Shown here piece by piece: positions 4,415 through 62,436 of a DNA stretch of 64,000 nt. Position 1 is the stretch's first letter. Every line of letters begins with the position of its first letter. Position numbers and translations under genes: made by a program. The notes beneath the pieces are model-generated. The model was not told the origin of the DNA. It searched no databases and saw only the letters and a program-made list of their open reading frames with translations. The stretch is from assembly GCA_023380585.1 (NCBI GenBank), contig JAMCRN010000009.1:2524-66523 (forward strand). The letters run 5' to 3'. Origin of the DNA: Candidatus Parvarchaeota archaeon. GTDB taxonomy: Archaea > Nanobdellota > Nanobdellia > Parvarchaeales > Parvarchaeaceae.

Positions 4415-7400
4415 ATGAAGCGTTTTCTTTTGGGGAAGAGATCCCAATCAGCATTGGAGTATCTAACAACGTACGCCTGGGAGTTTGCTCTTATAATTTT
4501 AGTGGTTGTTGCGCTGTTTTATACAGGCGTGTTCAATACCTCCGGATTCTTCTCATCCGCACCCGTTTTTTCTGGATTCAGCGGTATTTCGATACAGAAT
4601 GTAGTAGCAAATTCCACTGTAGTTGAACTGTCAATGGTCAATGATGAGAACTTTGGAGTAAACATTACAAATATGGCGCTCGATTACAACGGTCAGAATT
4701 TCACTGTGTTCTCATGCACAGAGTATTCACTATATCCTGGTGAGAACACAATCTGCGCTTTTGTGGGATCTTTCCCCCAAAGACGTATATCTACACACTT
4801 GTACATAGACTACAGTACAAACTCAATAAACACTCTATCAGCAGGGAGTATACTATTCTCTCCATCTAACTCCGCTGTCAAGTTCCCATTCATAAAAACA
4901 GAATTAAACTTCACAATAACAAATCTACAGAGCACAGCGACGTCGGCGCCATTCCAGCAAGAGATAACTTTTGATCCGCAGTTCCTGCAGCAGTACGAAT
5001 CCAGCAACCTCGGCAATATACGATTCTATGAAGGAGCACAAGAGTTATACAGCTGGTGCCAAAGCGGATGCTCCTCCTCTTCAGATAATGTAACATTCTG
5101 GGTAAATTTACCGAACGGTGTAGGCGCAGATTCTTCCCTGAATTTAACAATAGTATTCTTACCTTTGGCAAATTACGATGGTGTCTACGCTGGAGAAGCG
5201 CCACAGCTCTCCCCGATATACGCCGAGTATGATAATGGGGCTGATGTGTTCCCGGAATTGTATAATAATTTCAAAGGGACTACATTGAATGGCTTTAGTG
5301 GCGGGACCTATAAAATCGATAATGGTCTTACTATATATGACAATGGCAATTTAGTTTCTACCTCAGCAATACCAGACGGAAACACTGCTGTAACCATTTT
5401 TGGTCTGTTTGACTCTGGCGGCGCAGTATACTCCGGCTCGGGTAGTACATATGCATTGGGTTATGATTTTTACGACGGCAGCGGAGGAACAGGGCTTAGT
5501 TATGCTTTGAACTCAAATTCCGGTGGCAATGTAAATTGCGAAAATTTCGACACAAATAAATCTTGGGGTGCGTCAGCCGTTCCTATAAATACAACAGGTT
5601 TTTATTCTCTTTATTCGATTTATAAATCAGGTAATTTAACGACAGAATTTTATTTCAACAATATTTTCGACTGCGCAGGGAGTTGGCTTTCTGGTAATCC
5701 TTTTTACAACTCATTCTCTTCAACGAGCGACTTTCAATTTTATACGCAGACAACCTCGAATGCCTATGAATATTGGCAGTATATATTTGCGAGAACATTG
5801 CCCCCCAACGGTGTTATGCCGACTGTCTCCGGGCCGCTAGTCACCAGAGTGCCTATAACTTTTACTAACTACCAAGGCACTTCTACGCCGTCTCCTTTCC
5901 AACAAATGGTAACCGTGAACTCCTCACATTTCTCTAAATATGAAGCTAATAATCTAGATAACGTTTTTTTCTTTTATTCTAATGGGACTATCGTGCCTTC
6001 ATGGCTTGAATCAGGCGATGTAGCTACGTTTAATGGCGAGACCACCTCTTATAATTTAGGCGGAACTTCGTCGTATATACAAGGGTCGTCCCCCTACGTT
6101 TTTCCTTTATCTGGCTTTGCTTGGGTCTATGATAAGAACTATGGTACTAGCAATTTTCAGGTAATATTTGAATTTGATGGTAACACTCAAGGGAGTAGTC
6201 AGTTCGAGCTAGCGCTCAGTACAAGCGGGCAATTGAGATTCTGGAACGGGTCAGAGAACTTTTTATCCTCCTTAACCGTACCATTGGATTCATGGAGCCT
6301 AGTTGGGTTTTCTGTGGATTCCAACAATATAAACCTATACGTAAACGGACAAATAGAGTCTTTCCCCACCTCTAACGCCCCTCAGGATCCAGGAGACGGA
6401 TATTGGATAATAGGATGGCAGAACTGCTGCGGTGATAGAGACTTTAACGGAAGCATATCAAACGTCCAGCTATACTCATCAGCACTGTCCAAAACCCAAG
6501 CTGATCAATTATATTTAAGCGGACCATCGGGGTCTCCTCTACAGAATGGAGAATTGGCGGGTTGGTGGCCTCTTCTTGGTAATGCGAATGACATGAGCGG
6601 GAACAACAATAATGGTGTAGTGAACAACGTTTCGTTTACTTTCACCAGTTCGGCAAGCACAAAAACCACATATTGGTTAAAGATAAGTTCTATTCCTGCA
6701 GACTCAACAAAAACAGTGTATATAGGATTCGCGCCTCCCTATATAAATTCCTTCAACAGACTTACTGGAGAAGCGCCACAGCTCTCCCCGATATACGCTG
6801 AATATGATAATGGAGCAAAACTGTTTAATGACTATTGGAATTTTAATGGAACGTCTATGCCCTCTGCTTTTAGCGTAGTGAACCCGAATAGCAAAAGTAC
6901 AATAAGTGTAGACAATGGATTATATATCGCACCATACCCCAATAATTACGCAGGGATAGAGTATAACAGTGTCTTTAACCCCGATTCTGTAGTAGAATAT
7001 TATGAGGTAAGCTCTTATTCAGTACCAAATTGCTGGGCCGTAGGAGAGGCAGTCGGCTCATTTAACAGCTCTGGCGGCTATCTTTATGTTTATGCGTATC
7101 CGCCTGGCAGCGTGTACGGCCAGCTCGGATGGAGTGCCGGTAATATCGTTTTAAGTGATGGGGTAATATATAACCAAATTTTTAGAAATATTACGCGCAG
7201 CAATGTCATAATAGGAGAGGCTTGGCCGTCGGAAAATTTACAGGTGTATTATGCGGATGGACAGGACAGACAGGTGTCGTCAACAAATGAGCTTCTAATA
7301 AAAAGTGGAATAAGCTTCAGCTTTGGGGGGTATTACTGTACAAACGGGTCCTCTATATATACACGTTGGATCAGGGTAAGAGCATATCCCCCAAACGGCA

Positions 7401-7435
7401 TTATGCCAGCCGCCAGCTTTGGAGGAGTGATATAA
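4415..7435 (+). CDS. large (1006 aa) class III signal peptide (type-IV-pilin-like) surface adhesin with internally duplicated ConA/LamG-like modules
   Basis: The N-terminus MKRFLLGKRSQSALEYLTTYAWEFALIILVVVALF is an archaeal prepilin-type signal. GEAPQLSPIYAEYDNGA occurs twice, about 525 aa apart. PPNG(V/I)MP motifs mark the module ends. GWWPLLGNANDMSGNNNNG is a LamG_3-type motif. The protein is rich in Asn/Ser/Thr sequons. Confidence 0.75.
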   Translation: MKRFLLGKRSQSALEYLTTYAWEFALIILVVVALFYTGVFNTSGFFSSAPVFSGFSGISIQNVVANSTVVELSMVNDENFGVNITNMALDYNGQNFTVFSCTEYSLYPGENTICAFVGSFPQRRISTHLYIDYSTNSINTLSAGSILFSPSNSAVKFPFIKTELNFTITNLQSTATSAPFQQEITFDPQFLQQYESSNLGNIRFYEGAQELYSWCQSGCSSSSDNVTFWVNLPNGVGADSSLNLTIVFLPLANYDGVYAGEAPQLSPIYAEYDNGADVFPELYNNFKGTTLNGFSGGTYKIDNGLTIYDNGNLVSTSAIPDGNTAVTIFGLFDSGGAVYSGSGSTYALGYDFYDGSGGTGLSYALNSNSGGNVNCENFDTNKSWGASAVPINTTGFYSLYSIYKSGNLTTEFYFNNIFDCAGSWLSGNPFYNSFSSTSDFQFYTQTTSNAYEYWQYIFARTLPPNGVMPTVSGPLVTRVPITFTNYQGTSTPSPFQQMVTVNSSHFSKYEANNLDNVFFFYSNGTIVPSWLESGDVATFNGETTSYNLGGTSSYIQGSSPYVFPLSGFAWVYDKNYGTSNFQVIFEFDGNTQGSSQFELALSTSGQLRFWNGSENFLSSLTVPLDSWSLVGFSVDSNNINLYVNGQIESFPTSNAPQDPGDGYWIIGWQNCCGDRDFNGSISNVQLYSSALSKTQADQLYLSGPSGSPLQNGELAGWWPLLGNANDMSGNNNNGVVNNVSFTFTSSASTKTTYWLKISSIPADSTKTVYIGFAPPYINSFNRLTGEAPQLSPIYAEYDNGAKLFNDYWNFNGTSMPSAFSVVNPNSKSTISVDNGLYIAPYPNNYAGIEYNSVFNPDSVVEYYEVSSYSVPNCWAVGEAVGSFNSSGGYLYVYAYPPGSVYGQLGWSAGNIVLSDGVIYNQIFRNITRSNVIIGEAWPSENLQVYYADGQDRQVSSTNELLIKSGISFSFGGYYCTNGSSIYTRWIRVRAYPPNGIMPAASFGGVI

Positions 7436-12233: not shown

Positions 12234-12237
12234 ATCG

Positions 12238-26766: not shown

Positions 26767-28143
26767 TCAGGGAGTTATTTCTATATCGTCGTACGGCCCG
26801 ATATCGTCCGTTATATTATTTATCATTTGATACAAAGGAGGGGATAAAACTGCTATATGGCCTGGGTTAGACCTGTATGAAACGTATACATACCCATTCG
26901 GAGTAACTGCGACGCCAGGTACCTGGTCGCCAAAAAAATTAGGCAATGTTATATTATCTTCTATGGCATACGTTTTCGGATTTATGATTAAAAGCGAAGA
27001 ATTTGGCGATTTAACCTCTGTTAAATAGACATTTCCATTGGAATAAGTGATTGCTTGCGGATTAGGCCCGGTGGATATGTTTATTATATACGAATTTGTT
27101 GTGGAATTAAAAACAGAAACTGTATCCCCTTCCCAATTCCCTACCCAGACGGTGCCATTAACAGCCTGTACAAAAACAGGATAACTTAAACCAGTTATAT
27201 TCTTGATTATCTTGCCTGCTGATGGGGAAACAACGAACACGTAATTTTGTCCCGACAGCCCGCAAGTCGGCCATCCATTCTCATTAGTTATATAAACATC
27301 TCCAGTATCGCTTACGCCTAAAGTAGAGATACAATTTGTAGGGATAGGGATAATTTGGGTTACACTATTTTTATCTAAACTGTAAGCCACCAAATCTCCA
27401 GCCTTTCCAGTCCCATTGAACAGGTATAAGAAACTCCCATTTAAACTGTAAACGCCCTGTCCAGCGTTTGGTATGTTTACAATTTTTGCAGGAGCCAGGG
27501 TATTTATGTTAACAATAGAGAATGAATCGGTAGAGTTTCTGAACAAGATGTAACTAGAATTAGGGGATTTCATAACAAAATAAGGTTCGAAAGCACCGAA
27601 GCGTTTTATTACTGTATCCGTGAACGTTGATGCTATATCAGTATAATTTGAATCCGCCATAGCTATTATTATGTAAGAATTCTTACTGCTGGTTTTGCCG
27701 AAGACTGAACCTGTTGAGATGTAAGGCCCAGAGAAAACCTGGCCCGGCTCTGTATAATTTATGTATACAGAATATGAATATACAGAGCCAATAACGGAAG
27801 GACAAACTCCGGGGACTAGAAAAGTGCTCATGGTATTTGGTGGTACCAAGGTATTAACGTCTGGGTAGTCCAAGTATTTTTTAGATCCGGATATTAACTC
27901 TATTTGTGAGATGTTTATAAGATTTCCAGTAGAGTCCCCAAGTGTCAAATAAAGGCCTTGATTCTGCACACAGGAAGCAGAAACGGTTCCTAAACCGGCG
28001 AAGCCTGTGACTGTGGCTGATATACTTGAGGATGGGGAGAAGATACCTAGGGAGTATAGGACTGCGGCTACGATGACTATTATGAGAATGGCCCAGCCAT
28101 AGGTCATCATGTACTCTAGGGCTGACTGGGATTTGGTTCTCAT
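26767..28143 (-). CDS. class III signal peptide (pilin-like) surface protein with beta-propeller/YVTN-like repeats
   Basis: The N-terminus MRTKSQSALEYMMTYGWAILIIVIVAAVLYSLGIF is shared with the 49461 and 60250 genes. The rest is divergent. Confidence 0.7.
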   Translation of the reverse strand: MRTKSQSALEYMMTYGWAILIIVIVAAVLYSLGIFSPSSSISATVTGFAGLGTVSASCVQNQGLYLTLGDSTGNLINISQIELISGSKKYLDYPDVNTLVPPNTMSTFLVPGVCPSVIGSVYSYSVYINYTEPGQVFSGPYISTGSVFGKTSSKNSYIIIAMADSNYTDIASTFTDTVIKRFGAFEPYFVMKSPNSSYILFRNSTDSFSIVNINTLAPAKIVNIPNAGQGVYSLNGSFLYLFNGTGKAGDLVAYSLDKNSVTQIIPIPTNCISTLGVSDTGDVYITNENGWPTCGLSGQNYVFVVSPSAGKIIKNITGLSYPVFVQAVNGTVWVGNWEGDTVSVFNSTTNSYIINISTGPNPQAITYSNGNVYLTEVKSPNSSLLIINPKTYAIEDNITLPNFFGDQVPGVAVTPNGYVYVSYRSNPGHIAVLSPPLYQMINNITDDIGPYDDIEITP

Positions 28144-49460: not shown

Positions 49461-50588
49461 ATGAGTAGGTCACAGTCAGCCCTGGAGTACATGATGACCT
49501 ATGGCTGGGCTATCCTGATCATTGTCATCGTAGCCGCAGTCTTATACTCCTTAGGTATCTTCTCCCCATCCTCAAGCATATCAGCAACAGTAACGGGCTT
49601 CTCCAATCTAGGCTCAGTAGCAGCACAATGCACATCCAACGGAGTATTAAGATTAAGTCTTGGAGACTCGACAGGTTACCCTATAAACGTCACCAGTATA
49701 ACAGCAAAAGACTCCTCTACAAGCCAGACATCCACCTTCAAACCAAACTCCACAGTAGATCCTAATCCTATAATAGATGTGGGAGGCAGTTACATCTTCT
49801 CGGTTCCAAATGTATGTCCTCCGGCTGGCTCACATTACTCGATATCGACGACAGTGAACTACACCGAACCCGGACAGCCACTTCCAGGTCCGTATTTTTC
49901 TGTAGGGACTATAACAGGGATTACAATTCCTATAGATTTGCCTGAATATGTAGCTACTTTTAGCAGCAGCTCATCTAGAATTAATACCTCGGCAATTCCG
50001 TTTAGAAACCAGTCTTTTTCGATAACATTTTGGGTTTATCTAAAAACATACAATTCATCATGCCCATACGGTTGTGAATCAAAAGCTTTTACTCTTTCGT
50101 CCTTTCAAGGATGCACTGGTTCTTCTTGTCAGATTTTGGGCTTTGATACAAGAGGTAATAACTTCCATTATTTTGTATGGGACGCAGATCTTTATGAGCC
50201 GTCTACTGCCGGTAAATGGTATTTTATAAGCTGGACATTTAGTAACCCATCTAAGACACAAACAGGTTATATAGACGGAGCTTCGCCGGTTGGAAACGGT
50301 GTATATATAAGTAACCCCACCTACTTGTTCATAGGAGACGGGCCAGTTTTAGGAGGAGGATCTTTAGACGGGTTCATAACAAATTTTCAGATATACAATT
50401 CAACTTTAACACAGTCACAGATAGCTTCCTTGTACCAAGAAGGGCTGGATTATACACCAGTACCTAGCACAGGTTTGGCTCAGTGGTGGCCTCTTAATGG
50501 GACCATAAAGAACTATGCGCAAAATATAATCCCAGCAAACAATGGTGTAGTTTTCACAAGTAATTATCCTTCGACAGGTCTGCCTTAA
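49461..50588 (+). CDS. class III signal peptide (pilin-like) protein with LamG/ConA-like C-terminal module
   Basis: MSRSQSALEYMMTYGWAILIIVIVAAVLY, then a ~150-aa module about 93% nt-identical to the 60250 gene, then a divergent C-terminus ending LAQWWPLNG...NNGVVFTSNYP. The ORF track begins at 49377, but the prepilin-type start is the internal Met at 49461. Confidence 0.7.
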   Translation: MSRSQSALEYMMTYGWAILIIVIVAAVLYSLGIFSPSSSISATVTGFSNLGSVAAQCTSNGVLRLSLGDSTGYPINVTSITAKDSSTSQTSTFKPNSTVDPNPIIDVGGSYIFSVPNVCPPAGSHYSISTTVNYTEPGQPLPGPYFSVGTITGITIPIDLPEYVATFSSSSSRINTSAIPFRNQSFSITFWVYLKTYNSSCPYGCESKAFTLSSFQGCTGSSCQILGFDTRGNNFHYFVWDADLYEPSTAGKWYFISWTFSNPSKTQTGYIDGASPVGNGVYISNPTYLFIGDGPVLGGGSLDGFITNFQIYNSTLTQSQIASLYQEGLDYTPVPSTGLAQWWPLNGTIKNYAQNIIPANNGVVFTSNYPSTGLP

Positions 50589-50665
50589 TCGCGTCATTTT
50601 AGGAATGCAAGAAAAATGGCCAGCCAGGATTTTAATGATTTAAACCCGGAACTCTTTAAGCAAAA

Positions 50666-51229
50666 ATGGCTGAGACACTAGAAGCAATATCAGAAAGAGT
50701 GGTAAAGTGCACTTTATGTGACCTTTCCAACGGCAGAAAAAACGCCGTGCCTGGCGAGGGAATGGCAAATGCAAAACTCATGATAATAGGAGAAGCCCCC
50801 GGAAAGTATGAAGACATACTTGGAAAACCTTTCGTCGGGATGTCTGGAAAGTTTTTAAATAAATATTTAGAATTAGCTGGCATAGACAGATCGAGTACTT
50901 TTATAACAAATTCTGTCAAGTGCAGGCCCCCGAACAATAGGAAGCCCGTTATCGAGGAGATAAGCGCATGCAGGTCATATCTGATATCACAGATATCCCT
51001 GATAAAACCCAAACTCTTGCTGTGTTTAGGCACTTCCGCGTGCAATTCCATGGAAATAAGATACCAGCACCTTTCTGAAGTCAGAGGAAGACCGATGCAT
51101 CTAAAGTTTTATGGATTAGAAATAGAATGTTTTGTTACCTTTCATCCCTCCTTCCCGATGCGCTTTCCAAAAGCCAGGGAAACTTTCCTTGCGGACCTGA
51201 AAGAAGCTAAAAAAATAGTAGGGATGTAA
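50666..51229 (+). CDS. uracil-DNA glycosylase, family 4 (Fe-S, thermostable type)
   Basis: CTLCDL, GEGMANAKLMIIGEAPG and FVGMSGKFL. Confidence 0.85.
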   Translation: MAETLEAISERVVKCTLCDLSNGRKNAVPGEGMANAKLMIIGEAPGKYEDILGKPFVGMSGKFLNKYLELAGIDRSSTFITNSVKCRPPNNRKPVIEEISACRSYLISQISLIKPKLLLCLGTSACNSMEIRYQHLSEVRGRPMHLKFYGLEIECFVTFHPSFPMRFPKARETFLADLKEAKKIVGM

Positions 51230-51358
51230 CTGTGTTGTTGTGCATGCGCCAATCGAATATTTTATTAAAAATTACTATTCACTTTATAATAGTAAAGTAT
51301 TTATAGTAGTTAATCTCTTAAAACTTTAGATGCATCGGTCTTCCGGAGGAAAACAGTT

Positions 51359-52255
51359 ATGCAAAACGCAGGAAACACAAGCAAGACGAAACAATCACCG
51401 AAAGCCGGGAATGCGCCGGCGAAACCAGTGGTACAGACAACTGCTCCGGTAGTAAAACAGTCGTTAGACGATTTATTGTCTCATACAAATTCTCAGCCTT
51501 ATATGCAGCTCGCCACGGCGATGCAGATATATGACAGGCATAAAGATAAACCGAAGTTCAATGTAAACCAGGTCGGCACGGCCCTTTACAACTCTTTAGG
51601 CTCTATAATACAGCAGCATCCTGGCATGGACAGGCAGCCAGAAAACGCACTTCTTTTGAGCAGCATAAAGAACAACATCGATTACGGCACTTTTGACAAC
51701 GCCAAATTCGAAGCAGTAAGGTCGCATGCAATGAAGTTCATAGCGCCTTACTGGGAGGACGTAAAGAACGCCCTTTCAGACGGTGAATATAAGAGGATGG
51801 CGGAAATAGCTTTCGTAAGGAAGAAAGATTTCCCGAATCTGCACAATGAATTGGCTTCGCATGATACAGCAAAGAATGCCGCGTTCTTCGGCGTGATGCT
51901 TAACCAAATGTCGGAAGACGCGAGCGCAAGGAACACTTCCAACATGCTGCAATACTACAATAGTATGGTGGATAACATAGATCTCTCCGTATACAAGAAA
52001 GCGGGATTCACAGATGCACAGGCATCGGACCTGGCTAAATCTGCAAAAGACACTTACACGAAGTTAGTGAACGGCATGACCGAACAGGCGAGAGAAGCCC
52101 ATATGAAAGACATGATGGGTATAGCCTCGTACAAGTTCTCACAGCATGTGAAGAACGTGGACGTAGGCCACATAAAGAGCAAGATAGGCGCAGCGGCTCC
52201 TTACGAGGGACTGCTGCTAGCTCTTCAGTCAAAGAGCCAGCCGAACGAGGCATAA
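51359..52255 (+). CDS. hypothetical protein (disordered Q/S/T/P-rich N-terminus), first of a three-gene operon
   Basis: No recognisable motif. Higher GC than the surrounding DNA. Confidence 0.45.
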   Translation: MQNAGNTSKTKQSPKAGNAPAKPVVQTTAPVVKQSLDDLLSHTNSQPYMQLATAMQIYDRHKDKPKFNVNQVGTALYNSLGSIIQQHPGMDRQPENALLLSSIKNNIDYGTFDNAKFEAVRSHAMKFIAPYWEDVKNALSDGEYKRMAEIAFVRKKDFPNLHNELASHDTAKNAAFFGVMLNQMSEDASARNTSNMLQYYNSMVDNIDLSVYKKAGFTDAQASDLAKSAKDTYTKLVNGMTEQAREAHMKDMMGIASYKFSQHVKNVDVGHIKSKIGAAAPYEGLLLALQSKSQPNEA

Positions 52256-52340
52256 GGCCTCGACGGCTGGATATCTTGTTTTTAGGCCTTGAGACCTCCC
52301 TCTCATGAGGCCTTTCAATATTTAAATCGCAACAGTATCT

Positions 52341-53264
52341 TTGATAAAGATGGAAATCGCAGGGATGTATCCTGAAACGGCAGAAACGGCACCGAGTAGT
52401 GCCTCTAAAGAGACAGGAGAACCGCCGGTCAAGGAGCAGAGTCCTACAGAACAGCAATCCCAACCATCTCAGGCAGCCAATGACACTTCCGTCCAATCTG
52501 CGCCTTCCACTAAGGTAGGCAGGAGCGGTACAGCAAGACGGCTCTCCTCTTTCGCTTCTCAGTTGGAAACAGAGCTTGACAAAGGAGGAATAGGCTCTAT
52601 ATATTCCAATCAGGCCGTAGGCAACGTTTTCGAGGCGGCAGAGATGCCGAAAGCAGAGGTAGTCGGCACAGAAGAGAAACTTAGAGAGATAAAAGAGCTT
52701 AACATACTCGAGCAGGGCGCAATAGAAGCCCCGCCTGAACTTTTTAATCTAGGCCTTCTCGATTTCCAGTTGACCCCATACAAAGACAATAAGGGAAAAC
52801 AGCTAACGAACAAGAACGGGGAAAAGATCTATATAATGAGGGCCAAATGGGGGTACAGGTTTTACAATAACAAACCGAACTACCGCATGAACATATATTC
52901 AGCAGCCAAGAACCTATGGCAGCATTCAGTCAATCTTCGAATGCATTTAGGAAACTTTAAGAGGAACCTGATAAACCCAGAGATATCCGGTGCTGATGTA
53001 TCTGTACGTTTCCTTTCCCCTTACAGGATAGACGGAGGATATAGATATCATTATCCAGGCAGCCCATACGCTGATGACACCCGCTCACGCAGTCTAATTT
53101 CGAGAGTTTTTTCCGCCCCATATGAGCTGCTGAAAGGCGTGATTGTAGGACCTAGAGTAGCAGTTTCTACAGGTCCTATAACAGAGCCTAAGGCCAAGTC
53201 ATTGATAGCGATACTTTCCCAGACAGATGCGAAAGCAAGACTGGAAGCGGAGGAAAACGCATGA
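52341..53264 (+). CDS. hypothetical protein (disordered acidic S/T/Q/P-rich N-terminus)
   Basis: No recognisable motif. Its stop overlaps the next gene's start. Confidence 0.45.
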   Translation: MIKMEIAGMYPETAETAPSSASKETGEPPVKEQSPTEQQSQPSQAANDTSVQSAPSTKVGRSGTARRLSSFASQLETELDKGGIGSIYSNQAVGNVFEAAEMPKAEVVGTEEKLREIKELNILEQGAIEAPPELFNLGLLDFQLTPYKDNKGKQLTNKNGEKIYIMRAKWGYRFYNNKPNYRMNIYSAAKNLWQHSVNLRMHLGNFKRNLINPEISGADVSVRFLSPYRIDGGYRYHYPGSPYADDTRSRSLISRVFSAPYELLKGVIVGPRVAVSTGPITEPKAKSLIAILSQTDAKARLEAEENA

Positions 53265-54007
53265 GTCTTAATAAGTATTTCAGCGATGACAAGGGCGTAC
53301 AGAACCTCGTCAGGCATGGATTCTCACAGATGCCGTTTCATATAGAAAGTGAAGATACGGAAGAAGCTATAGCCGACGGAGTTTGCTGGGCGAGGAAAGG
53401 ACTGGAAAAAATATTAGGAGATACGATAGTAGTCGTAGAAAAATTGGGCAGAGGCAGGAAGACGCATTACAATCTTGTAGGGCCTCTTTCTTTAGAAACA
53501 TATTCCAAAGAAGAGATAAGCGACGATGAAAGGATACAAGATAAATTCAAACCAGGAGTATTATATATAAGCAAATACAATGCTCCGAGAGAAGGAGGTT
53601 CATTTGTAGGGGCTATGAACCCCGAGCATATAATAGGCGCCTACGGGATAGTAAGAGGATACTTAATGAAGAAAGAGGACCATGGGCAGACAACCCGTCC
53701 GATACCTGAGATAGACAGGATATCAACAGGGCCGTATGGGATGGTGCCGAAGAAGGTAACAGACATAATAGCGGACAGTTACGGTTTTCCTAGGCCTAAA
53801 GAGGGAGACATAGTCCCGGTCATATCACATTACGATTTCAACCTAACTTCTTTCAATGAGGAAAACCCCCAGAAGATATTCAGCGCAGTGGTCTACGATG
53901 GTCCGGTATTCCAGGTAACTCCACAGGCAGACGCGGACCGTGTAAAAGTACTGGAAGTCGTCCTGGGTATAGACAAACATCTTTCCTCGTTTCTATTCAA
54001 GAATTAG
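53261..54007 (+). CDS. hypothetical protein
   Basis: No recognisable motif. It is translationally coupled to the previous gene by a 4-nt overlap. Confidence 0.45.
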   Translation: MSLNKYFSDDKGVQNLVRHGFSQMPFHIESEDTEEAIADGVCWARKGLEKILGDTIVVVEKLGRGRKTHYNLVGPLSLETYSKEEISDDERIQDKFKPGVLYISKYNAPREGGSFVGAMNPEHIIGAYGIVRGYLMKKEDHGQTTRPIPEIDRISTGPYGMVPKKVTDIIADSYGFPRPKEGDIVPVISHYDFNLTSFNEENPQKIFSAVVYDGPVFQVTPQADADRVKVLEVVLGIDKHLSSFLFKN

Positions 54008-54033
54008 ATGTTATCTCTGCAAAGTTTAAATAA

Positions 54034-55014
54034 TTGCGGTTACAATCCATAAAAATGAAGGTTTTATCTTTTGATACAGTAATATTCTTAGTGATAGGTA
54101 TAGTCGTAATCCTGCTGGCAAGCACTTACAACATATCACAGGCACTGGCGGCTTTTTCTAACATAAATCTTTTTTACATATTCCTGGCCGCAGTGGCTTG
54201 GGTCCTATTCATATTTTCAAGGTTCATGCCATGGTCGTTTGTACTACGGAGACTGAAGATGAAGGTGCCGTTCATAAAGAGCATGTCCATGATGATACCC
54301 TTCTTTGGGCTCGCTTTCATACCTTCCAGCGTCGGACAGCTCCTACCTCTGCAACATTTAGAAGAGTTCAAGAAGGAATCCCGTTTTTTGTCTCTTGGGA
54401 TACTGCTGTCTCTTAACTCAACATACCTACTTAGCATCATAGCCATGGCCATGATAACCGCTATCTTCGTATCGAATCTTGTTCTGTATATCGTGGCGAT
54501 ATTTGCTATATTATATTTCTTTGTCTCGATGCTAAAGCTAAGCCTGTTCTATAAAGCAATAGACAGATATGTAGTCAAGCCGTTTAAGCTGAAGAAAAGA
54601 AGGTTTATAAAGAACGTCACAAAATACCTTAAACAGCTGGAAAAGAATAAGAGCATATTCTCTCAAAAGGACATAATAACACAGATTCTGCTCTTTCTTC
54701 CGCCCCTGCTCTTGGAAGCGAGCATCCTTTACTTCGCGTTGGTAGCGCTGAACCAGAGCATATCCTTCTTGTCTGCAGTTTTCATCTTCTCCTTCTCTTT
54801 CTCAATCGGAGTATTGCTCTTTTTCTTCCCAGGGGCGATAGGACCGGCCGACGCTTCTATAATAACCCTGCTTATCATTTCCGGAGTGCCAGGGGCAATA
54901 GCCGTCTCAGCAGACATAATACTGCGTTTTTTCAATACTTTTCTGACAATACTGGCCTCATACGGAGTATTCTTGTTTTCAAGGCGTTACATGTGGTCAA
55001 AGAAGACGGTTTGA
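54034..55014 (+). CDS. flippase-like / lysylphosphatidylglycerol-synthase-like (UPF0104) polytopic membrane protein
   Basis: Eight TM helices. It sits at the head of the glycosyltransferase cluster. Confidence 0.45.
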   Translation: MRLQSIKMKVLSFDTVIFLVIGIVVILLASTYNISQALAAFSNINLFYIFLAAVAWVLFIFSRFMPWSFVLRRLKMKVPFIKSMSMMIPFFGLAFIPSSVGQLLPLQHLEEFKKESRFLSLGILLSLNSTYLLSIIAMAMITAIFVSNLVLYIVAIFAILYFFVSMLKLSLFYKAIDRYVVKPFKLKKRRFIKNVTKYLKQLEKNKSIFSQKDIITQILLFLPPLLLEASILYFALVALNQSISFLSAVFIFSFSFSIGVLLFFFPGAIGPADASIITLLIISGVPGAIAVSADIILRFFNTFLTILASYGVFLFSRRYMWSKKTV

Positions 55015-55087
55015 CGGATTTATTGACCAGTTTTCAGTCGCCAAGCCAGAAGGAGATTTATTTATTCAAAAATCTGTTTTTATAGAC

Positions 55088-56251
55088 ATGGATAACGATA
55101 GAAGCCTGAAAATCGCTATTTTTACGGATACTTATCATCCTGCAGTGGATGGCGTCGTCAAGTATATAGACAACATCAGGAACGAACTTGAAAGCCGCGG
55201 TCATGAAGTTTACGTGTTCGCGGCAGGCAATAGAGCAACCAGGGAGTTATCGAATGCAGACAAAAAGCTATTTGTCTTTTATGGGATAAATTTCCGCAAG
55301 TACAAACAATATACCTTAGCGGCTAATCCGATCTTGACAAGGATAGTAGGCAAGATAAAACCGGACCTGATACATTCACAGACACCGTTTTCTATGGGGT
55401 TACTCGGCCTTATCGCAAGCAGAAGATACAAGATAAAGATGCTAAGCACATTCCATACCTTCATAAACTCCGATGAACTTATCGAGAAATATCTGAATAA
55501 AAACAAAGCACTTCTTAGGATATCTAAAAGGCTGCTGGTACAGTACATGCGATATTTTTACTCCAGGAATAGTATTGTGATAGCGCCAAGCGAATACTCA
55601 AAAAGAATCCTCTCCAGAATCGGCGTAAAAAATGTCGTAGTAGTACCTAATGGAGTAAATCCCCCTTCCGAAATAAGCAAGTCATATGCAAGGAGGAAGC
55701 TCGGGATAAGACCGAAGGAAAGGATAATATTGTACATGGGAAGGATAGGGCATGAAAAGAACCTAAACTTTCTGGTCTCTGTATCCGACAAGATTGCGGA
55801 ATTAGGCGCGACATTGGTGATCGGAGGATCCGGACCGGCTTTATCCGGACTCGAAGACTATGTTTCAAAGAACAGGCTGCCGAATATAAAATTCCTTGGA
55901 TTCGTCAGCGAGTCAGAGAAAAATGCCTACTACAAAGCTGCCGATGTTTTCGTAAACCCCTCGAATATAGAAATCTTAAGCACGGTGGACATAGAAGCCA
56001 TGGTAAACGGGACGCCTATACTAGTGCCGGCTATGACTTCTCAGGAAGAGTTCCTGAGAAAAGGAAAATGCGGCGAAAAGTTCAATCAAAACGACCCGGA
56101 TGATTTCATAAGAAAGCTTAAAATAATGTTTAGAAATCTGGATAAATACAATCCTCAGCGGTGTGCGAAAGAGTACTCTATAAAAAATTCCGTGGACAGG
56201 CTCTTAGAGGTCTATTATTCGCTTTTAAAGGAAGATGTACGAACCTCCTAG
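55088..56251 (+). CDS. GT4-family glycosyltransferase
   Basis: An N-terminal Glyco_trans_4-like region (IAIFTDTYHPAVDGV) and the C-terminal GT1/GT4 EX7E region. Confidence 0.85.
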   Translation: MDNDRSLKIAIFTDTYHPAVDGVVKYIDNIRNELESRGHEVYVFAAGNRATRELSNADKKLFVFYGINFRKYKQYTLAANPILTRIVGKIKPDLIHSQTPFSMGLLGLIASRRYKIKMLSTFHTFINSDELIEKYLNKNKALLRISKRLLVQYMRYFYSRNSIVIAPSEYSKRILSRIGVKNVVVVPNGVNPPSEISKSYARRKLGIRPKERIILYMGRIGHEKNLNFLVSVSDKIAELGATLVIGGSGPALSGLEDYVSKNRLPNIKFLGFVSESEKNAYYKAADVFVNPSNIEILSTVDIEAMVNGTPILVPAMTSQEEFLRKGKCGEKFNQNDPDDFIRKLKIMFRNLDKYNPQRCAKEYSIKNSVDRLLEVYYSLLKEDVRTS

Positions 56252-56343
56252 GAGGCCGTTGCCGGCGTCCCTTTTTCAAGGCTTACGTATAGCTAAAGCC
56301 GACGGCTGGATAGTTTTATTAATAAGCTTCGTTCGGTATTAGA

Positions 56344-57069
56344 ATGGACGAGTATCCATTGATATCAGTATTGATACCGACTAGAAACGAAGAAAAATAC
56401 CTGCCTTTTTTGCTTAAGTCGATAAAAGCCCAGACCTACAAGAATTACGAAATAATCATTGGAGATTATATGTCCGTTGACAACACGATACCCATAGCCC
56501 GTAAATACGGCGCAAAAGTCATAAAATGCCATAAAAAAGGAATGGCAGCCGGAAAAAACGCAGCGCTAAATATCGCTAAAGGAGAAATAATATTATTCGT
56601 AGACGCAGATTTCATCTTGTCCAAACGCTTGTTTGAATCTGTCGTAAAGATGTTCAGAAAAGAAAAGGACGTTGTTGGAATAGAGCCAAGGTCGGCACTC
56701 AACCCACGAAGCATCAGAAAGGACAGGCTCCCCTACTTTAGGATGGCTGTAAGGATAATCAACATATTAAAACGATTTTCTTACCATACCAAGGCGCCAT
56801 TCGCTTTTGGTTGTGTTTTTTGCAGGGCGTCGGCCATGAAACGTGCAGGCAGATTCAAAGAACATCTTTTGATCATTGAAGATAAGGACTTCTATTCGAG
56901 ACTCAGGAAATATGGACGTTTCAAAATGGTAAATGCGACCGCGATGATCTCCTTCAGGCGACAGGTCGGTAAAGGTTTTCTGCGTTCGACAATTACTTAC
57001 ATAAAGGCCGAGATAGGGTGGGCCACGACCGGGAAAGTAAAGGGAGAACTGGAGCCCGTCCGTTTGTAG
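56344..57069 (+). CDS. GT2-family glycosyltransferase (dolichyl-phosphate sugar transferase-like)
   Basis: ISVLIPTRNEEKYL and the DAD motif (FVDADFIL). It is paralogous to 58309..59040. Confidence 0.8.
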   Translation: MDEYPLISVLIPTRNEEKYLPFLLKSIKAQTYKNYEIIIGDYMSVDNTIPIARKYGAKVIKCHKKGMAAGKNAALNIAKGEIILFVDADFILSKRLFESVVKMFRKEKDVVGIEPRSALNPRSIRKDRLPYFRMAVRIINILKRFSYHTKAPFAFGCVFCRASAMKRAGRFKEHLLIIEDKDFYSRLRKYGRFKMVNATAMISFRRQVGKGFLRSTITYIKAEIGWATTGKVKGELEPVRL

Positions 57070-57196
57070 TCAAAATGTCCCGATCGTTGGCTGGATGGCA
57101 AACGCTACATGGTCCATGGAATATATATGGTATTATTATAAGAGTTTCTAAGAATCATATGGATATTATCTCATCGGACGTCTACGGGAGCAAAAC

Positions 57197-58312
57197 ATGC
57201 TAGTAGGGACATCTACTTCTGCGCACCAGGTGGAGGGCAACAATAAGAGCAGCGACTGGTGGCATTTCGAGCAGACAAACAGGCTGAAGCATAAATCCGG
57301 CTCCGGATGCGACCAGTACAGGCTTTACAAGAAAGACATAGACCTAATGAAATCTCTAGGATACAATGCCTATAGATTCTCTATAGAATTCGCCAGAGTC
57401 ATGCCCCACGAGAGGAGTATAGACCAGGGGGCCGTAAAACATTACAAAGACATGATAGAATACATGAAGCAGAAGGATATAGAGCCTATCCCGACGCTGT
57501 GGCATTATACACTGCCGCTCTGGTTCTCCAGGAAGGGCGGGTTCGAAAAGAGGAAAAATTTCAAATACTTTTTTGACTACGTAAACGCGCTCCTAGAGGC
57601 AGGGTTGGACGTAAGGTACATACTTACCATAAACGAACCGGTAATATTCTCCACAGCCGCATACTTGTCGGGCCTGTATCCTCCGTTCGTTAGATCATTC
57701 ATCAAGTGGAACAGGGTAATGCTGAACCTTTTTGCCCTGCACAATGAAGTTTATGATATACTGAAATCTTACGGTTACAGGGTCTCTTTTGCGAATAACT
57801 TCGTAGACATGAAGAGCGACTTGATATTCTCTCCAGTGACAAAGCTCATAGACTACCTTATGAATCAGAGGCCGCTTCTATTCACAAGGTTCGATTTCAT
57901 TGCGATAAACTACTATCATAGCATAGACGCAATAAGGTACCTTGTATACAAGATATACAAGGGCAGGAAAAGGGTAGAATTCCTTGATGCTAAAGGCTTA
58001 TACAACATAATACGCAGGGAGTATTCCCTGTTCAAAAAGCCGATAATGATAACCGAAAACGGCCTGGACACTTTGGACGACGATTTCAGGTGCAGATTCA
58101 TAAAGGACCATTTTGAGTCCGTGTTGTCTGCCAGGCGATCCGGCGTGCCAGTACTAGGATACCTGCACTGGTCTTTCATAGACAATTTTGAGTGGACCTA
58201 TGGTTATAATAAAAACTTCGGAGTCGTTGGTTTCGACATGAAGACAAAGAGAAGGATACCAAAAAAGAGCGCCTACGTCCTAGGTGAATTAGCAAGGGAG
58301 AACAGGGGCTAA
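57197..58312 (+). CDS. GH1-family beta-glycosidase-like protein (short, 371 aa)
   Basis: TSAHQVEG, TINEP (the acid/base Glu) and ITENG (the nucleophile Glu). Confidence 0.75.
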   Translation: MLVGTSTSAHQVEGNNKSSDWWHFEQTNRLKHKSGSGCDQYRLYKKDIDLMKSLGYNAYRFSIEFARVMPHERSIDQGAVKHYKDMIEYMKQKDIEPIPTLWHYTLPLWFSRKGGFEKRKNFKYFFDYVNALLEAGLDVRYILTINEPVIFSTAAYLSGLYPPFVRSFIKWNRVMLNLFALHNEVYDILKSYGYRVSFANNFVDMKSDLIFSPVTKLIDYLMNQRPLLFTRFDFIAINYYHSIDAIRYLVYKIYKGRKRVEFLDAKGLYNIIRREYSLFKKPIMITENGLDTLDDDFRCRFIKDHFESVLSARRSGVPVLGYLHWSFIDNFEWTYGYNKNFGVVGFDMKTKRRIPKKSAYVLGELARENRG

Positions 58313-59040
58313 CCCTTCTTTTTTCTTCTTATCGCCTTGAACCTGAATTTAAATCGTCGCGCAAGCAATGCGGACAAAGCCGCCATAAAATAGATAAGCC
58401 CGGTCTTTATGACCCCTTCTTTTGCATGCCTGCGGTAGGAGACTCTTACCGTCTTCCTTATCAGCTTGAACCTTCCGTACAGCCTTAATCTGGAAAAGAA
58501 CTCCTTGTCCTCGCACACGTCTATGTTCTCGTTGAACAGGCCTGCTTTCTTTATGGCGCTACTAAGGCAGAAATCGCACCCGTATGCTGCAGGCAGAGGC
58601 CCGAAGAAACTTATCGTCTTGTTGAGGGTGACGAAAGCATTCACTACCCTGAATTTAAGCCTGTCCTTGAACCGCAGGTCTTTCAGGCCTATCCTCGGCG
58701 AGGGCTCCACGCACACCAGCTTTTTATTCTTGTCGAAAGCCGCTACTACTCTCCTGAATACGTCCTTTGAGAGGATGTAATCTGCGTCTATAAGGGCGAT
58801 TATATCACCGTCCGCTTTCTTTATACCGGCATTTCGTGCAGTCGCTATGTTAGTCTTAGGTACCTTGATTACCCTGGCACCATATTTTTTGGCTATGCTT
58901 GGCGTAGAATCATTGGAAGAATCAGCCACTATTATGTCGTATTTATTGTAAGTCTGTGCTTTTATCGACTTTAGAAGGTCCTCTATATAGTTTTCTTCAT
59001 TGTAAGTCGGTATGACAACCGAGATAAGCCGATCACCCAT
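58309..59040 (-). CDS. GT2-family glycosyltransferase (inverted paralog of 56344..57069)
   Basis: ISVVIPTYNEENYI and IDADYIL, about 45% identical to its paralog. Confidence 0.8.
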   Translation of the reverse strand: MGDRLISVVIPTYNEENYIEDLLKSIKAQTYNKYDIIVADSSNDSTPSIAKKYGARVIKVPKTNIATARNAGIKKADGDIIALIDADYILSKDVFRRVVAAFDKNKKLVCVEPSPRIGLKDLRFKDRLKFRVVNAFVTLNKTISFFGPLPAAYGCDFCLSSAIKKAGLFNENIDVCEDKEFFSRLRLYGRFKLIRKTVRVSYRRHAKEGVIKTGLIYFMAALSALLARRFKFRFKAIRRKKKG

Positions 59041-59122
59041 ATTTTTATCCTTAGAATAGTATAGGATCGCTTAATAACTTTTCCATTCAAAATATTTAAA
59101 CCCCGTCTTTTCTTATAATATC

Positions 59123-60121
59123 ATGGACAAAAATAACATCGTTATAACTAGGACCCCTCTGAGGATAACTTTCTGCGGAGGCGGCACGGACATACCTGAA
59201 TACTATAAAAACAACTCTTACGGCTGTGCCGTCAACTCAGCCATAAACAAATACATTTACGTTACGGTAAACAAAAGGTTCGAGAACAATTTAAGGATAA
59301 AATACTCTTTGACGGAAAACGTTGACAGTGTAGAGGACATAAAGCACCCTTCTATAAGAGAATCCCTTAAATTCCTAGGGATAAAGAATTCAATTGAGAT
59401 AGACAGCATATCCGATATCCCTTCCAAGGGCACTGGCCTCGGCTCAAGCAGCACTTTTCTGGTAGGGTTATTGAACGGCCTGCATAATTGGCTCGGGGAA
59501 GAGCCGGGACCGAGACAGCTGGCAGAGGAAGCCGTAAAGATAGAGCGCGAAATACTTAAGGAAGCGGGCGGAAAACAAGACCAATATGTTGCGGCATACG
59601 GCGGCCTTAACTATATGAGGTTCAAAAGCGACGAGAGCGTGGAAGTCCGTCCTATACGCATGAACAAGAGGGACTTGAAGTCCTTAGAAGCAAGCCTTCT
59701 TTTGCTGTATACTGGCGGGGACAGGAGCTCCTCGGCCATCTTGGAAAAACAGAAGAAGGCCATATCTGATAAGACGGAACAGTACACAAAGATGAGGACT
59801 TTGACCGACAGCCTTTATGTTGATTTAGAAATGGGCAACTGGAAATCCACTGGTAAATACCTGGATGAGAACTGGAAGATAAAAAGGAGTTTTGAGGACA
59901 GCATCTCCAACGGTTTTATCGACAATGCTTACAATACTGCTATTTCAAAGGGAGCGGAAGGCGGTAAATTGGTCGGTGCGGGCGGCAGCGGCTTTCTTCT
60001 GTTGTTCGCCGATAAAAGCAGGCACGATGCAATAATGTCCGCTTTGCCATCTCTCAGGCAGGAGGACTTCCGCTTTGAAGACTCCGGCAGCAGCGTCTTA
60101 TACAAGTCTGCTACGACATAG
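59123..60121 (+). CDS. GHMP-family sugar kinase
   Basis: PSKGTGLGSSS is the GHMP ATP-binding motif. Confidence 0.75.
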   Translation: MDKNNIVITRTPLRITFCGGGTDIPEYYKNNSYGCAVNSAINKYIYVTVNKRFENNLRIKYSLTENVDSVEDIKHPSIRESLKFLGIKNSIEIDSISDIPSKGTGLGSSSTFLVGLLNGLHNWLGEEPGPRQLAEEAVKIEREILKEAGGKQDQYVAAYGGLNYMRFKSDESVEVRPIRMNKRDLKSLEASLLLLYTGGDRSSSAILEKQKKAISDKTEQYTKMRTLTDSLYVDLEMGNWKSTGKYLDENWKIKRSFEDSISNGFIDNAYNTAISKGAEGGKLVGAGGSGFLLLFADKSRHDAIMSALPSLRQEDFRFEDSGSSVLYKSATT

Positions 60122-60249
60122 GATCAACGAATTGGCTTCCATCGATGACTGCAAGTTTTAAGTAAGTATCATAGCAGATTATAAATTTTCCTCTTTTTCG
60201 TAGTACGTTTCCCATAAAACTATTTATTCACTATATATCTATCTCTTAT

Positions 60250-61422
60250 ATGAGCCTGACGCATAGATCTCAGTCAGCATTGGAGTACATGATGACCTAT
60301 GGCTGGGCCATCCTGATCATAGTCATCGTAGCCGCAGTCTTATACTCCTTAGGTATCTTCTCCCCATCCTCAAGCATATCAGCAACAGTAACGGGATTCT
60401 CCAATCTAGGTTCAGTAGCAGCACAATGCACAGCCAACGGAGTCTTAAGGATAAACCTAGGAGACTCGACAGGTTACCCTATAAACGTCACCGGTATAAC
60501 AGCAAAAGACTCCTCCACAGGACAGATATCAACATTCAAATCAAATTCCACGGTAGATCCTAATCCTATAATAGATGTGGGAGGCAGTTACATCTTCTCA
60601 GTTCCAAATGTATGTCCCCCTGCCGGCACTCATTACTCCATATCGACGACAGTAAACTACACCGAACCCGGACAGCCACTCCCAGGTCCATACACATCCA
60701 GTGGAACTATCTCTGGAACGGTATCGGCTACAAATCTGCCACCAAGTGTCCCCTACTTTAATGGCGTTAACGCCTATCTTTACTCATCAGGAACGCTTAA
60801 CGGTTTGCCGGTCGGCCGTAGTGCAAGAACGGTTACCGCGTGGTTTTACGCCACTAACCTAACTTCAAGCGGTGGCGGCCGTTCAAATGTTTTTGTGTAT
60901 GGCACAACTAACTGTAATCCAGATAGTATGTTTCATGTGTATATCAATTACGGCAGCGCGCCAAATATAGTTATGAATGCTTGGTGCACTGATACTTCGA
61001 TTAGTGGTGTTGTAGCCGGAAAGTGGTATTTTGTTTCATATGCAATTAATGGTTCCAGCACTCCAAATGGAGATACTTTCCAAACCGGTTATACAGCTTC
61101 GTATGGTGGTAATCTAGTGTTAGCAAAGGACGGTCCATACAATATAAGTACTAGTTCTGTTTCTGGAATAGACATAGCGAATCCTTACGGATCAAACTAT
61201 TATTTTCAAGGTTATATAACAAACATTCAAATATACAACTTTGAACTTTCTCAGGCTCAAATACAAACATTAGTAAATGAGGGTATTTACGGTGCGCCAG
61301 TAACAACTAGCGGTTTAGTTGCGTGGTATCCTCTAAACGGTAGCCTTTCATCGTATCTGGTAAGCAACACAGCATTCTCAAGTGCAAATGCAGTATTCAC
61401 TAGCGATTATCCCACGCCATAG
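60250..61422 (+). CDS. class III signal peptide (pilin-like) protein with LamG/ConA-like C-terminal module
   Basis: MSLTHRSQSALEYMMTYGWAILIIV, the conserved 5' module shared with 49461, and a divergent C-terminus ending GLVAWYPLNG. Confidence 0.7.
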   Translation: MSLTHRSQSALEYMMTYGWAILIIVIVAAVLYSLGIFSPSSSISATVTGFSNLGSVAAQCTANGVLRINLGDSTGYPINVTGITAKDSSTGQISTFKSNSTVDPNPIIDVGGSYIFSVPNVCPPAGTHYSISTTVNYTEPGQPLPGPYTSSGTISGTVSATNLPPSVPYFNGVNAYLYSSGTLNGLPVGRSARTVTAWFYATNLTSSGGGRSNVFVYGTTNCNPDSMFHVYINYGSAPNIVMNAWCTDTSISGVVAGKWYFVSYAINGSSTPNGDTFQTGYTASYGGNLVLAKDGPYNISTSSVSGIDIANPYGSNYYFQGYITNIQIYNFELSQAQIQTLVNEGIYGAPVTTSGLVAWYPLNGSLSSYLVSNTAFSSANAVFTSDYPTP

Positions 61423-61556
61423 TCTTAAATATTATCCTGCTCAGAATATTCTCAAGGAAGGCAAAATAGGCTAACATTTTTCTACGTTTTTGTGCTATTT
61501 TAAGTATTGAATCGATGCGCATCTAATTTAAAAGTATTAACATCTACTTTTATGTA

Positions 61557-62297: not shown

Positions 62298-62308
62298 CGA
62301 GTATGATT

Positions 62309-62383
62309 TGGGGCAGCCGGGATTTGAACCCGGAACAACCTGAGCCCAAGTCAGGTATCATAGCCAAGTTAGATCACCACCCC
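62309..62383 (-). tRNA. tRNA-Pro (anticodon TGG)
   Basis: The reverse complement is GGGGTGGTGATCTAACTTGGCTATGATACCTGACTTGGGCTCAGGTTGTTCCGGGTTCAAATCCCGGCTGCCCCA. It has a perfect anticodon arm CCTGA-CTTGGGC-TCAGG and T-arm CCGGG-TTCAAAT-CCCGG. The acceptor stem has two G-U pairs and the D-arm is slightly atypical. Confidence 0.75.
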
Positions 62384-62436
62384 ACATCGATAGATATAAT
62401 TATCAAGTATAAAAAGTAATAGTTGTTAATCTTAAA

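Follow-up and report, generated by a model that had tools for sequence, protein, structure and literature searches.

Two genes in a 64,000-nt stretch of DNA from a Candidatus Parvarchaeota archaeon, a tiny acid-mine organism (contig JAMCRN010000009.1, positions 2,524 to 66,523; the window, as used here, is this whole stretch) raise a simple question: how can they be nearly identical at the nucleotide level over their 5′ parts and then diverge abruptly, and what might such genes do for the cell that carries them? These genes, here called A and B, share their mature N-terminus with a third gene, C, and their signal type with a fourth, D. We consider it fairly probable that A, B and C, with D as a second class, belong to a large Parvarchaeota family of modular archaeal type IV pilins, in which the 5′ cassette coding for the pilin is homogenised among paralogues while C-terminal “heads” are reassorted, and whose members would act as adhesins.

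The genes and their shared tracts are the following:
4415..7435, + strand: gene D, 1006 aa; second pilin class (QSALEYLTTYAWEF...), with a Laminin_G_3 domain and two DUF2341-like modules
26767..28143, − strand: gene C, 458 aa; class III signal, a mature N-terminus of 47 residues identical to A and B, and a C-terminal beta-propeller (DUF5074/NHL/YVTN-like)
27989..28132, − strand: cassette copy 3, the alpha-helix-coding part (in C); 143-144 nt, 87.5-88% identical to A and B (blastn)
49461..50588, + strand: gene A, putative modular prepilin, 375 aa; intact open reading frame (ORF); leader MSRS (49461-49472), mature start QSALEY
49461-49928, + strand: pilin module of gene A, to about residue 156; the LamG jelly-roll module occupies about residues 160-375
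49466..49894, + strand: shared 5′ cassette, copy 1 (in A), spanning the whole pilin module, with the cleavage site at one end and the motif NYTEPGQPLPGPY at the other
60250..61422, + strand: gene B, putative modular prepilin, 390 aa; intact ORF; leader MSLTHRS, A-type pilin module and a different, anciently diverged LamG module
60264..60692, + strand: shared 5′ cassette, copy 2 (in B; blastn)

The shared 5′ cassette

An earlier note on this DNA had reported a repeat of about 93% identity over some 430 bp between A and B, and blastn bears this out with an alignment of 429 nt at 91.84% identity (E about 1e-178). The 5′ edge of this block is the codon of the −1 Ser in the motif [KR]S/QSALEY (the slash marks the predicted cleavage site), and both the leaders and the DNA upstream of them are dissimilar between the two genes. 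The 3′ edge is sharp and lies directly past the codons for NYTEPGQPLPGPY; the abrupt divergence that had been noticed there is real, with nucleotide identity per 25 codons dropping from 79-97% within the block to 35-55% past its edge. Synonymous divergence (dS) in the block is 0.28-0.30 (0.295), with a nonsynonymous divergence (dN) of 0.027, and dS is saturated in the remainder of the gene.

The further likenesses listed in the same note are also present. Genes A and B end in the proposed W(W/Y)PLNG motif (QWWPLNG and AWYPLNG, respectively), C has the shared N-terminus, with its 47 identical mature residues and the third, partial cassette copy, and D combines the same signal type, on a different helix sequence, with the motif GWWPLLGNANDMSGNNNNG (WWPLLG...SGNNNNG). 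Beyond the helix, the pilin module of C has diverged to about 58-60% amino-acid identity with A and B. A regular-expression scan finds class III-type signals in A, B, C and D and in no other gene of the window. The interior of gene D also holds a 52-nt direct repeat (94% identity, 5190-5241 and 6765-6816) encoding GEAPQLSPIYAEYDNGA, which marks its two DUF2341-like modules.

A predicted pilin module with diverse heads

The archaeal signal differs from the bacterial IPR012902 prepilin N-methylation motif that was used in the original survey of modular pilins. In this family, a short basic leader ending in [KR]-S is followed by a mature N-terminus starting QSALEYMMTYGWAILIIVIVA..., and the predicted cleavage sites are MSRS/Q in A, MSLTHRS/Q in B, MRTKS/Q in C and ...GKRS/Q in D, with a hydrophobic stretch of about 24 residues after [KR]S/Q in all four genes. 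These leaders follow the rules for archaeal prepilins, namely G, A or S at −1, a charged residue at −2 and cleavage before the hydrophobic domain, and Q at +1 is found in EppA substrates (PMC4371748). The helix leads into the pilin domain, a beta-sandwich of about 110 residues that contains two conserved, paired Cys residues; past the motif NYTEPGQxxPGPY there follow a Ser/Thr-rich linker and finally the variable head.

An AlphaFold2 model of the full A protein, built on a 95-sequence alignment, has a mean predicted local distance difference test score (pLDDT) of 85.8 and a predicted template-modelling score of 0.82. It places a helix at residues 7-30, a beta-sandwich at 43-154 and a jelly roll at 164-366, with pLDDT >90 over most of the pilin domain; the N-terminal 156 residues modelled in isolation reach 79.9. 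When the N-terminal module (N-module) was compared with the PDB by Foldseek, the single match below E 1e-3 was 8fk7_A, the type IV pilus subunit of Pyrobaculum calidifontis (E 6e-5). Both structures consist of an N-terminal helix and a beta-sandwich, aligned over 154 columns, although sequence identity is 18%, the template-modelling score is 0.45-0.51 and the Pyrobaculum subunit has no C-terminal head.

The family also includes stand-alone homologues of 155-166 aa, which have the same helix and beta-sandwich and stop precisely at the point that in A is the start of the linker; the window’s own metagenome-assembled genome (MAG) encodes one such protein, P0091 (locus tag M1293_00615). These are probably plain, major pilins. 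Genes A, B, C and D would then code for a plain pilin module with an extra head, that is, for the combination of an N-terminal pilin module and a non-pilus domain by which Raynaud et al. 2021 recognised modular pilins. N-glycosylation sequons occur at 1.8-3.1 per 100 aa in the family and at 0.94 in the other ORFs of the window, a two- to threefold enrichment in keeping with secreted archaeal proteins. In a JGI metagenome, a 200-aa pilin (locus L084, 2273-2875, − strand) has a related but distinct mature N-terminus (GQGAMEYMMTYGWAILVVLIIG...), from which it appears that the EYMMTYGWAIL helix motif reaches beyond the Parvarchaeota family.

As for the heads, that of A matches Pfam Laminin_G_3 (PF13385) with E 4e-11 and 43.7 bits, over the cut-off of 27.6 bits, and D scores 62.8 bits against the same model. 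The head of B, with 24.9 bits (E 2.5e-5), is slightly under this cut-off, and it aligns at full length with the head of A: identity is 75/223 residues (34%) end to end by MAFFT, and 29.5% over 254 residues by BLASTP (E about 2e-18 to 2e-20). The initial description of these C-terminal domains as unrelated therefore has to be abandoned; they are homologous LamG jelly rolls that diverged anciently, as their saturated dS and frequent indels also indicate. Foldseek matches the A model to LamG, pentraxin and lectin domains in the PDB (E 1e-10 to 1e-6); the LamG heads are lectin-like and may bind carbohydrates. Over the genes considered here, LamG jelly rolls form the heads of A, B, D and P0128, C has a beta-propeller instead, and DUF2341 occurs in D and P0223. 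The earlier proposal of a conserved secretion and assembly handle joined to variable lectin-like heads is thus supported, in the form of a 155-residue N-terminal pilin module carrying LamG, beta-propeller or DUF2341 heads.

Size and distribution of the family

A genome scan gave 227 confirmed stretches, and the comparisons below use the best 80 of these 227 loci, all from species-representative genomes. They include Parvarchaeum ARMAN-4 and ARMAN-5, and the others are nearly all MAGs of Candidatus Parvarchaeota or Nanoarchaeota, many of them from sites with mine-like names. With 100% identity, the protein of gene A corresponds to MCL4399099.1, [quoted passage not shown], and its close genomic relatives all belong to Parvarchaeota or ARMAN-4/5-type DPANN, so the “Thermoplasmatales-like” host first suggested for this DNA does not stand. 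Current annotation calls the family genes “LamG domain-containing protein” or “hypothetical” only.

Several MAGs among the 80 loci carry 6-10 copies each, and other contigs of the window’s own MAG hold at least four further members (P0128, P0222, P0223 and P0091, with accessions near that of A and from the same submission). Every one of the 87 family copies in these loci starts with its own signal peptide, and the amino-acid sequence of the mature N-terminal helix hardly varies among all the Parvarchaeota genomes. Laminin_G_3 is found in 41/70 complete members and DUF2341 in 13/70, and beta-propellers in about five. A profile of the N-module, run against a library of 1.84 billion proteins clustered at 50%, retrieved 148 clusters at E <= 1e-30 and 2217 at E <= 1e-10; in these matches the module is always N-terminal, and most full-length proteins have 330-560 aa, the longest 1109 aa. 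The same profile found no relative in a scan of viral contigs, so nothing points to viruses as vectors of the heads. Of two scans of JGI metagenomes for exact patterns, one yielded nothing and the other two distant family members.

Probable recombination between paralogues and between lineages

The mosaic seen in A and B recurs in paralogue pairs of at least eight other MAGs, ARMAN-4 among them, where an identity of 85-100% over about 140 (sometimes about 260) codons gives way to about 40%. A few paralogue pairs regain 88-100% identity at the 3′ end, past a divergent middle (L074 3001-4107 and L075 3001-4092; L040 2139-4628 and L041 2998-4632); in these, the variable region is flanked by conserved sequence on both sides, which would allow its replacement in the manner of a cassette. 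In related MAGs, moreover, numerous contigs stop within the first 70-125 codons of a family gene, as expected at a near-identical repeat that assembly leaves unresolved.

Synonymous sites set the handle apart from what common descent and protein conservation would leave. Against N-modules of the same type in other genomes, A has a dS between 1.2 and saturation, as compared with 0.28-0.30 in the A-B block. The first 105 nt of A, B and C are mutually 91.4-96.2% identical (C to both A and B, 91.4%), whereas the identity expected for an invariant 35-residue helix peptide under the codon usage of the window is 74.2 +/- 3.6%, with a maximum of 87.6% in 5000 simulations. Codon bias was therefore rejected as the cause of the within-genome similarity (74% expected, 91-96% observed). 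The helix segment behaves alike elsewhere: identity within genomes is 0.81-0.96 in 12/13 genomes with at least three copies, the exception being JAKAPM with 0.737, and between genomes it is 0.71-0.77, which equals the neutral expectation.

The two parts of these genes also have different histories. The nearest neighbour at the nucleotide level lies in the same genome for 32/53 N-modules and for 13/53 C-terminal modules, where chance would give 7%, and the neighbours of the two modules differ in 35/53 genes. In cross-genome orthologue pairs, recognised by their heads, the heads are often about 10 points more identical than the N-modules (93% and 83%, or 88% and 78%, for instance), as expected if resident paralogues overwrite the N-modules. 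The head of A is closer to heads of other species (48-49% amino-acid identity) than to that of B (30%), even though its N-module is nearest to B. The pairs that best illustrate this discordance are:
A and B: N-module identity 94%, head identity 30%
A and P0122: N-module identity 77%, head identity 49%
B and P0128: N-module identity 99% (99.3% in amino acids), head not alignable beyond 45 residues
P0122 and P0124: N-module identity 72%, head identity 94%
P0124 and P0144: N-module identity 98%, head identity 35%

P0128 (MCL4399420.1) is a third paralogue from the MAG of A and B that, by amino-acid comparison, carries yet another LamG module. P0122 and P0124 present the opposite case: at the nucleotide level their N-modules are 53-82% identical, and their heads, together with about 200 nt or more of available downstream sequence, are 97-100% identical. 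These two genes lie in different genomic neighbourhoods and come from different samples, and each architecture has been assembled independently several times.

On sequence evidence, therefore, the domain architecture, the expansion of the family, the sharp mosaic and the discordant histories of its modules are demonstrated, and the pattern is that of concerted evolution: within-genome paralogues are closer at synonymous sites than between-genome orthologues, over a region with sharp bounds. That recombination has acted on the handle is strongly supported by the contrast in dS, the codon-usage control, the clustering of N-modules by genome, the discordance between N- and C-terminal modules, and the near-100% identical head on divergent handles. 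All this supports gene conversion of the pilin cassette and reassortment of the heads as the processes that would have shaped the family.

Genomic context

Candidate assembly genes and a candidate promoter were found as follows:
10304-11341 and 11331-12233, − strand: two TadC/FlaJ-type platform proteins (half-size, membrane); Pfam T2SSF E 1.6e-11 and 1.6e-13
12238-13755, − strand: FlaI/TadA-type ATPase; Pfam T2SSE E 1.8e-39
60216..60228, + strand: promoter-like box AAAACTATTTATT (BRE/TATA-like, BRE standing for B recognition element), 22-34 nt upstream of the ATG of B
Loci with the AAAACTATTTAT box, at about −49 from the match start: L003, L004, L009, L012, L014, L020-L022, L024, L037, L039, L047 and L053

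The genome thus has both a pilus ATPase and platform proteins (10304-13755), which would presumably serve A to D; their NCBIfam matches (FlaI, TadA, FlaJ-like) are under the equivalog cut-offs, and gene D lies 3 kb from them. The BRE/TATA-like box AAAACTATTTAT stands at a fixed distance from the ATG in B and in 14 relatives from four related MAGs, and is absent from A and C. It presumably functions as a promoter, and its presence in a subset suggests that part of the family may be co-regulated and share a promoter cassette.

Gene B sits inside a glycan-synthesis cluster (54034-63420) that codes for an LPG_synthase_TM-like membrane protein, a GT4 and three GT2 glycosyltransferases, a GH1 glycosidase, a GHMP sugar kinase and a methyltransferase; it may have a part in glycosylating the sequon-rich pilins or the cell surface. 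A gene for a PD-(D/E)XK (Cas4-like) nuclease abuts both gene C (26033-26761, + strand) and P0122 (L081 4149-4862, − strand). This adjacency in two genomes could be a coincidence or a link to recombination, and two cases are no evidence of a link.

Between A and B, three consecutive ORFs of 298, 307 and 248 aa (51359-54007, + strand) have no Pfam match; they form the stretch of highest GC content in the window (0.467, compared with about 0.42 elsewhere), and the first two have low-complexity N-terminal regions rich in Q, P, S and A. Directly upstream of gene D, in the AT-rich stretch at 2-4 kb (GC 0.32), lies an Orc1/Cdc6 gene (3107-4366, + strand); this stretch may be a replication-origin region. 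Farther upstream, a gene at 774-1484 (− strand) codes for a protein of about four helix-turn-helix (HTH_23-type) repeats.

Alternative explanations

Several observations weigh against the reading of A to D as modular pilins with a converted cassette. The N-module (154 aa) has no Pfam family at E <= 1, the class III signal model included; NCBIfam returns noise only, such as TafC at 14-19 bits for a cut-off of 410 bits, and a sequence profile search of the PDB gives no match. Because curated sequence models miss the N-module, the pilin assignment rests on the motif, the predicted fold, the family architecture and the context; the sole pointer from sequence models to a pilin is one cluster member labelled “UPF0333 family” (JGI). 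No prepilin peptidase, whether an EppA or a PibD homologue, was found among the window ORFs scanned, and instead of forming part of a pilus operon, A, B and C are dispersed, with housekeeping and glycosylation genes around them. In addition, 8% of the positions in the A/B block differ, from which it follows that conversion is neither very frequent nor very recent, and all comparison genomes are MAGs, so that some mosaic contigs could in principle be assembly chimeras.

The alternative that fares best, although we think it unlikely, is that these are surface-anchored binding proteins with a class III signal, which neither form nor decorate pili. The N-module would then be an export or anchoring device, and the heads would capture substrates or form a surface layer, in a way that would resemble the sugar-binding-protein bindosome or pseudopilus of Sulfolobus. 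In archaea, proteins unrelated to pili are known to carry class III signals, and such a role would suit the dispersal of the family genes outside a pilus operon and the location of B in the glycan-synthesis cluster; the window ATPase also scores against the model of the bindosome ATPase BasE, far under its cut-off. However, the N-module has a full helix and beta-sandwich fold matching a solved archaeal pilus subunit, and the stand-alone version of 155 aa with the same helix is what would be expected of major and minor pilins that assemble together.

If A to D are taken as modular pilins, the kind of recombination has still to be considered. The earlier note had suggested a variable adhesive-pilus or surface-antigen system, and the long near-identical 5′ homology, the highly variable 3′ parts and the clear traces of past recombination might recall Neisseria pilE/pilS, where one expressed locus is rewritten often from silent cassettes. 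Programmed antigenic or phase variation of this kind is nevertheless improbable here. Neither blastn nor tblastn found any further partial, silent or promoterless cassette copy in the 64-kb window, and all copies in the 80 related loci have a signal peptide of their own at the start. The variable part is a whole domain of ancient lineage instead of a mini-cassette, and since the conserved part is at the 5′ end, a donor must bring a complete head with its 3′ flank; the 8% divergence of the A/B block speaks against frequent exchange as well.

Still less probable is ordinary duplication and divergence, with the N-terminus under strong purifying selection, the heads under diversifying selection, and no recombination. 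The near invariance of the mature helix at the protein level across Parvarchaeota genomes would agree with it, but purifying selection alone is rejected by the contrast between a dS of 0.3 in the block and saturation in the heads and between genomes, and by the codon-usage control; nor would it account for a gene whose N-module is nearest to B and whose head is nearer to other species. Finally, the least credible explanation is that near-identical repeats in metagenome-assembled contigs produced false mosaics, for although the window is itself part of a MAG and related assemblies do break at the repeat, the copies in A, B and C have unique flanks within a single contig and, with 8-12% of the block positions different between them, are not collapsed, the mosaic recurs in the eight other MAGs from different sites, including the 2010 Sanger-era assembly of ARMAN-4, and both partners of the head swap (the P0122 and P0124 types) were assembled repeatedly in independent samples.

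Relation to known systems

Fusions of pilins with LamG domains are among the commonest bacterial modular pilins, and in Streptococcus sanguinis the lectin module of PilC binds host glycans (PMC8179133, PMC9934059). The Parvarchaeota family resembles these bacterial proteins (the ConA-like lectin PilC and the vWA protein PilB of S. sanguinis) in its grafted LamG/ConA-like module (PF13385), for which adhesion at the tip to host glycans or proteins has been proposed. It departs from them in its archaeal class III signal, with Q at +1 and no IPR012902 motif, in its archaeal beta-sandwich pilin fold, and in having many paralogues per genome of roughly 1 Mb instead of one or two; besides, no nucleotide-level homogenisation of the pilin and no reassortment of heads is reported in those two studies.

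Among archaea, the adhesion pilins PilA1-PilA6 of Haloferax volcanii differ hardly at all in their H-domain (Esquivel et al. 2013, as reviewed in PMC4371748). Like A to C, they are dispersed paralogues away from the assembly genes, sharing a hydrophobic N-terminus needed for assembly, while their divergent remainders confer different adhesion. Unlike them, they are small single-module proteins in which the shared part is limited to the H-domain of about 30 residues, whereas in Parvarchaeota the shared tract can take in all 140 codons of the pilin module (in certain paralogue pairs, up to about 260 codons) and the proteins bear large heads. The EppA-processed pilins of Methanococcus maripaludis (PMC4371748) have a class III signal with Gln at +1 and a QxSxEY-like start, as in the present family; the difference lies in the missing EppA or PibD homologue among the window ORFs scanned and in the failure of the Pfam class III signal model to match.

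In Neisseria pilE/pilS (PMC4877100), as in this family, the N-terminal part of the type IV pilins stays constant and the C-terminal part varies, and homologous recombination takes place between paralogues. The Neisserial system, however, works at high frequency with one expressed gene, silent 5′-truncated cassettes and short variable segments, whereas the Parvarchaeota copies are complete, each with its own start and signal, a whole domain differs among them, and it is the constant region that is homogenised.

A further parallel is the expansion of LamG-like jelly-roll genes described in the “ARMAN” archaeon Mia14 and other DPANN, some near type IV pilus loci (Golyshina et al. 2017, PMC5498576). 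Mia14 is likewise an acidophilic ARMAN-type DPANN, and its many LamG-like genes, some of them near pilus genes, were proposed to take part in host-cell interaction; it belongs to the Micrarchaeota, however, and pilin fusions, a shared 5′ cassette, gene conversion or head swapping were not described there. Papers on Parvarchaeota go no further than to mention pilin or pilus genes or to note pili-like connections (PMC10134863, PMC5864196, PMC4110969), and a survey of archaeal type IV pili makes no mention of LamG, DPANN or gene conversion (PMC4858521). A search of full-text literature on DPANN with pilin and LamG, and on archaeal pilins with gene conversion, found no description of the family or of its mosaic evolution. 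The suggestion that the system had not been described thus holds, as far as this search goes, for its mosaic evolution, while its ingredients, the LamG expansion in ARMAN and other DPANN and the bacterial pilin-LamG fusions, were already known. Modular pilins and concerted evolution of a constant region are known kinds of phenomena, of which the family is a variant.

Biological implications

A mechanism consistent with these data can be outlined. A prepilin peptidase would remove the leader, and the FlaI/TadA-type ATPase and the TadC-like platform would insert A to D into filaments built from stand-alone pilins such as P0091, or at their tip, with the QSALEYMMTYGWAILIIVIVA... hydrophobic helix packed in the pilus core. 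The heads would project from the filament, probably at the tip, as has been argued for bulky bacterial modular pilins (PMC8179133, PMC9934059), and, so exposed at the surface, would act as adhesins or lectins toward the host surface, presumably that of Thermoplasmatales-type cells. Gene conversion would homogenise the pilin cassette among paralogues of one genome, with tracts running from the cleavage-site codon to the domain linker, probably because only recombinants with these end points stay functional. A homogenised cassette would keep all subunits compatible with one assembly machine, and its homology would let heads be reassorted, including heads from other Parvarchaeota lineages, which would be fitted with the resident handle. 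The outcome would be a standing repertoire of complete, individually promoted genes, with no silent-cassette switch.

More tentatively, the pilin cassette might serve as a portable homology handle by which heads are captured, reassorted and exchanged between paralogues and species, and the head repertoire might determine or retune which Thermoplasmatales hosts are recognised; such a recombination-driven host-range system in DPANN is a possibility that we rate as doubtful for now.

ARMAN and other DPANN archaea rely on being in physical contact with their host cells. The family described here offers concrete candidates for host recognition, in the form of dozens of predicted pilus-displayed lectin-like or propeller heads per lineage on a standardised pilin module. 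It also offers a population-genetic mechanism by which such a repertoire may be maintained and reshuffled, in which gene conversion acts on the handle and heads are exchanged even across species, and it would extend the concept of modular pilins from bacteria to archaea.

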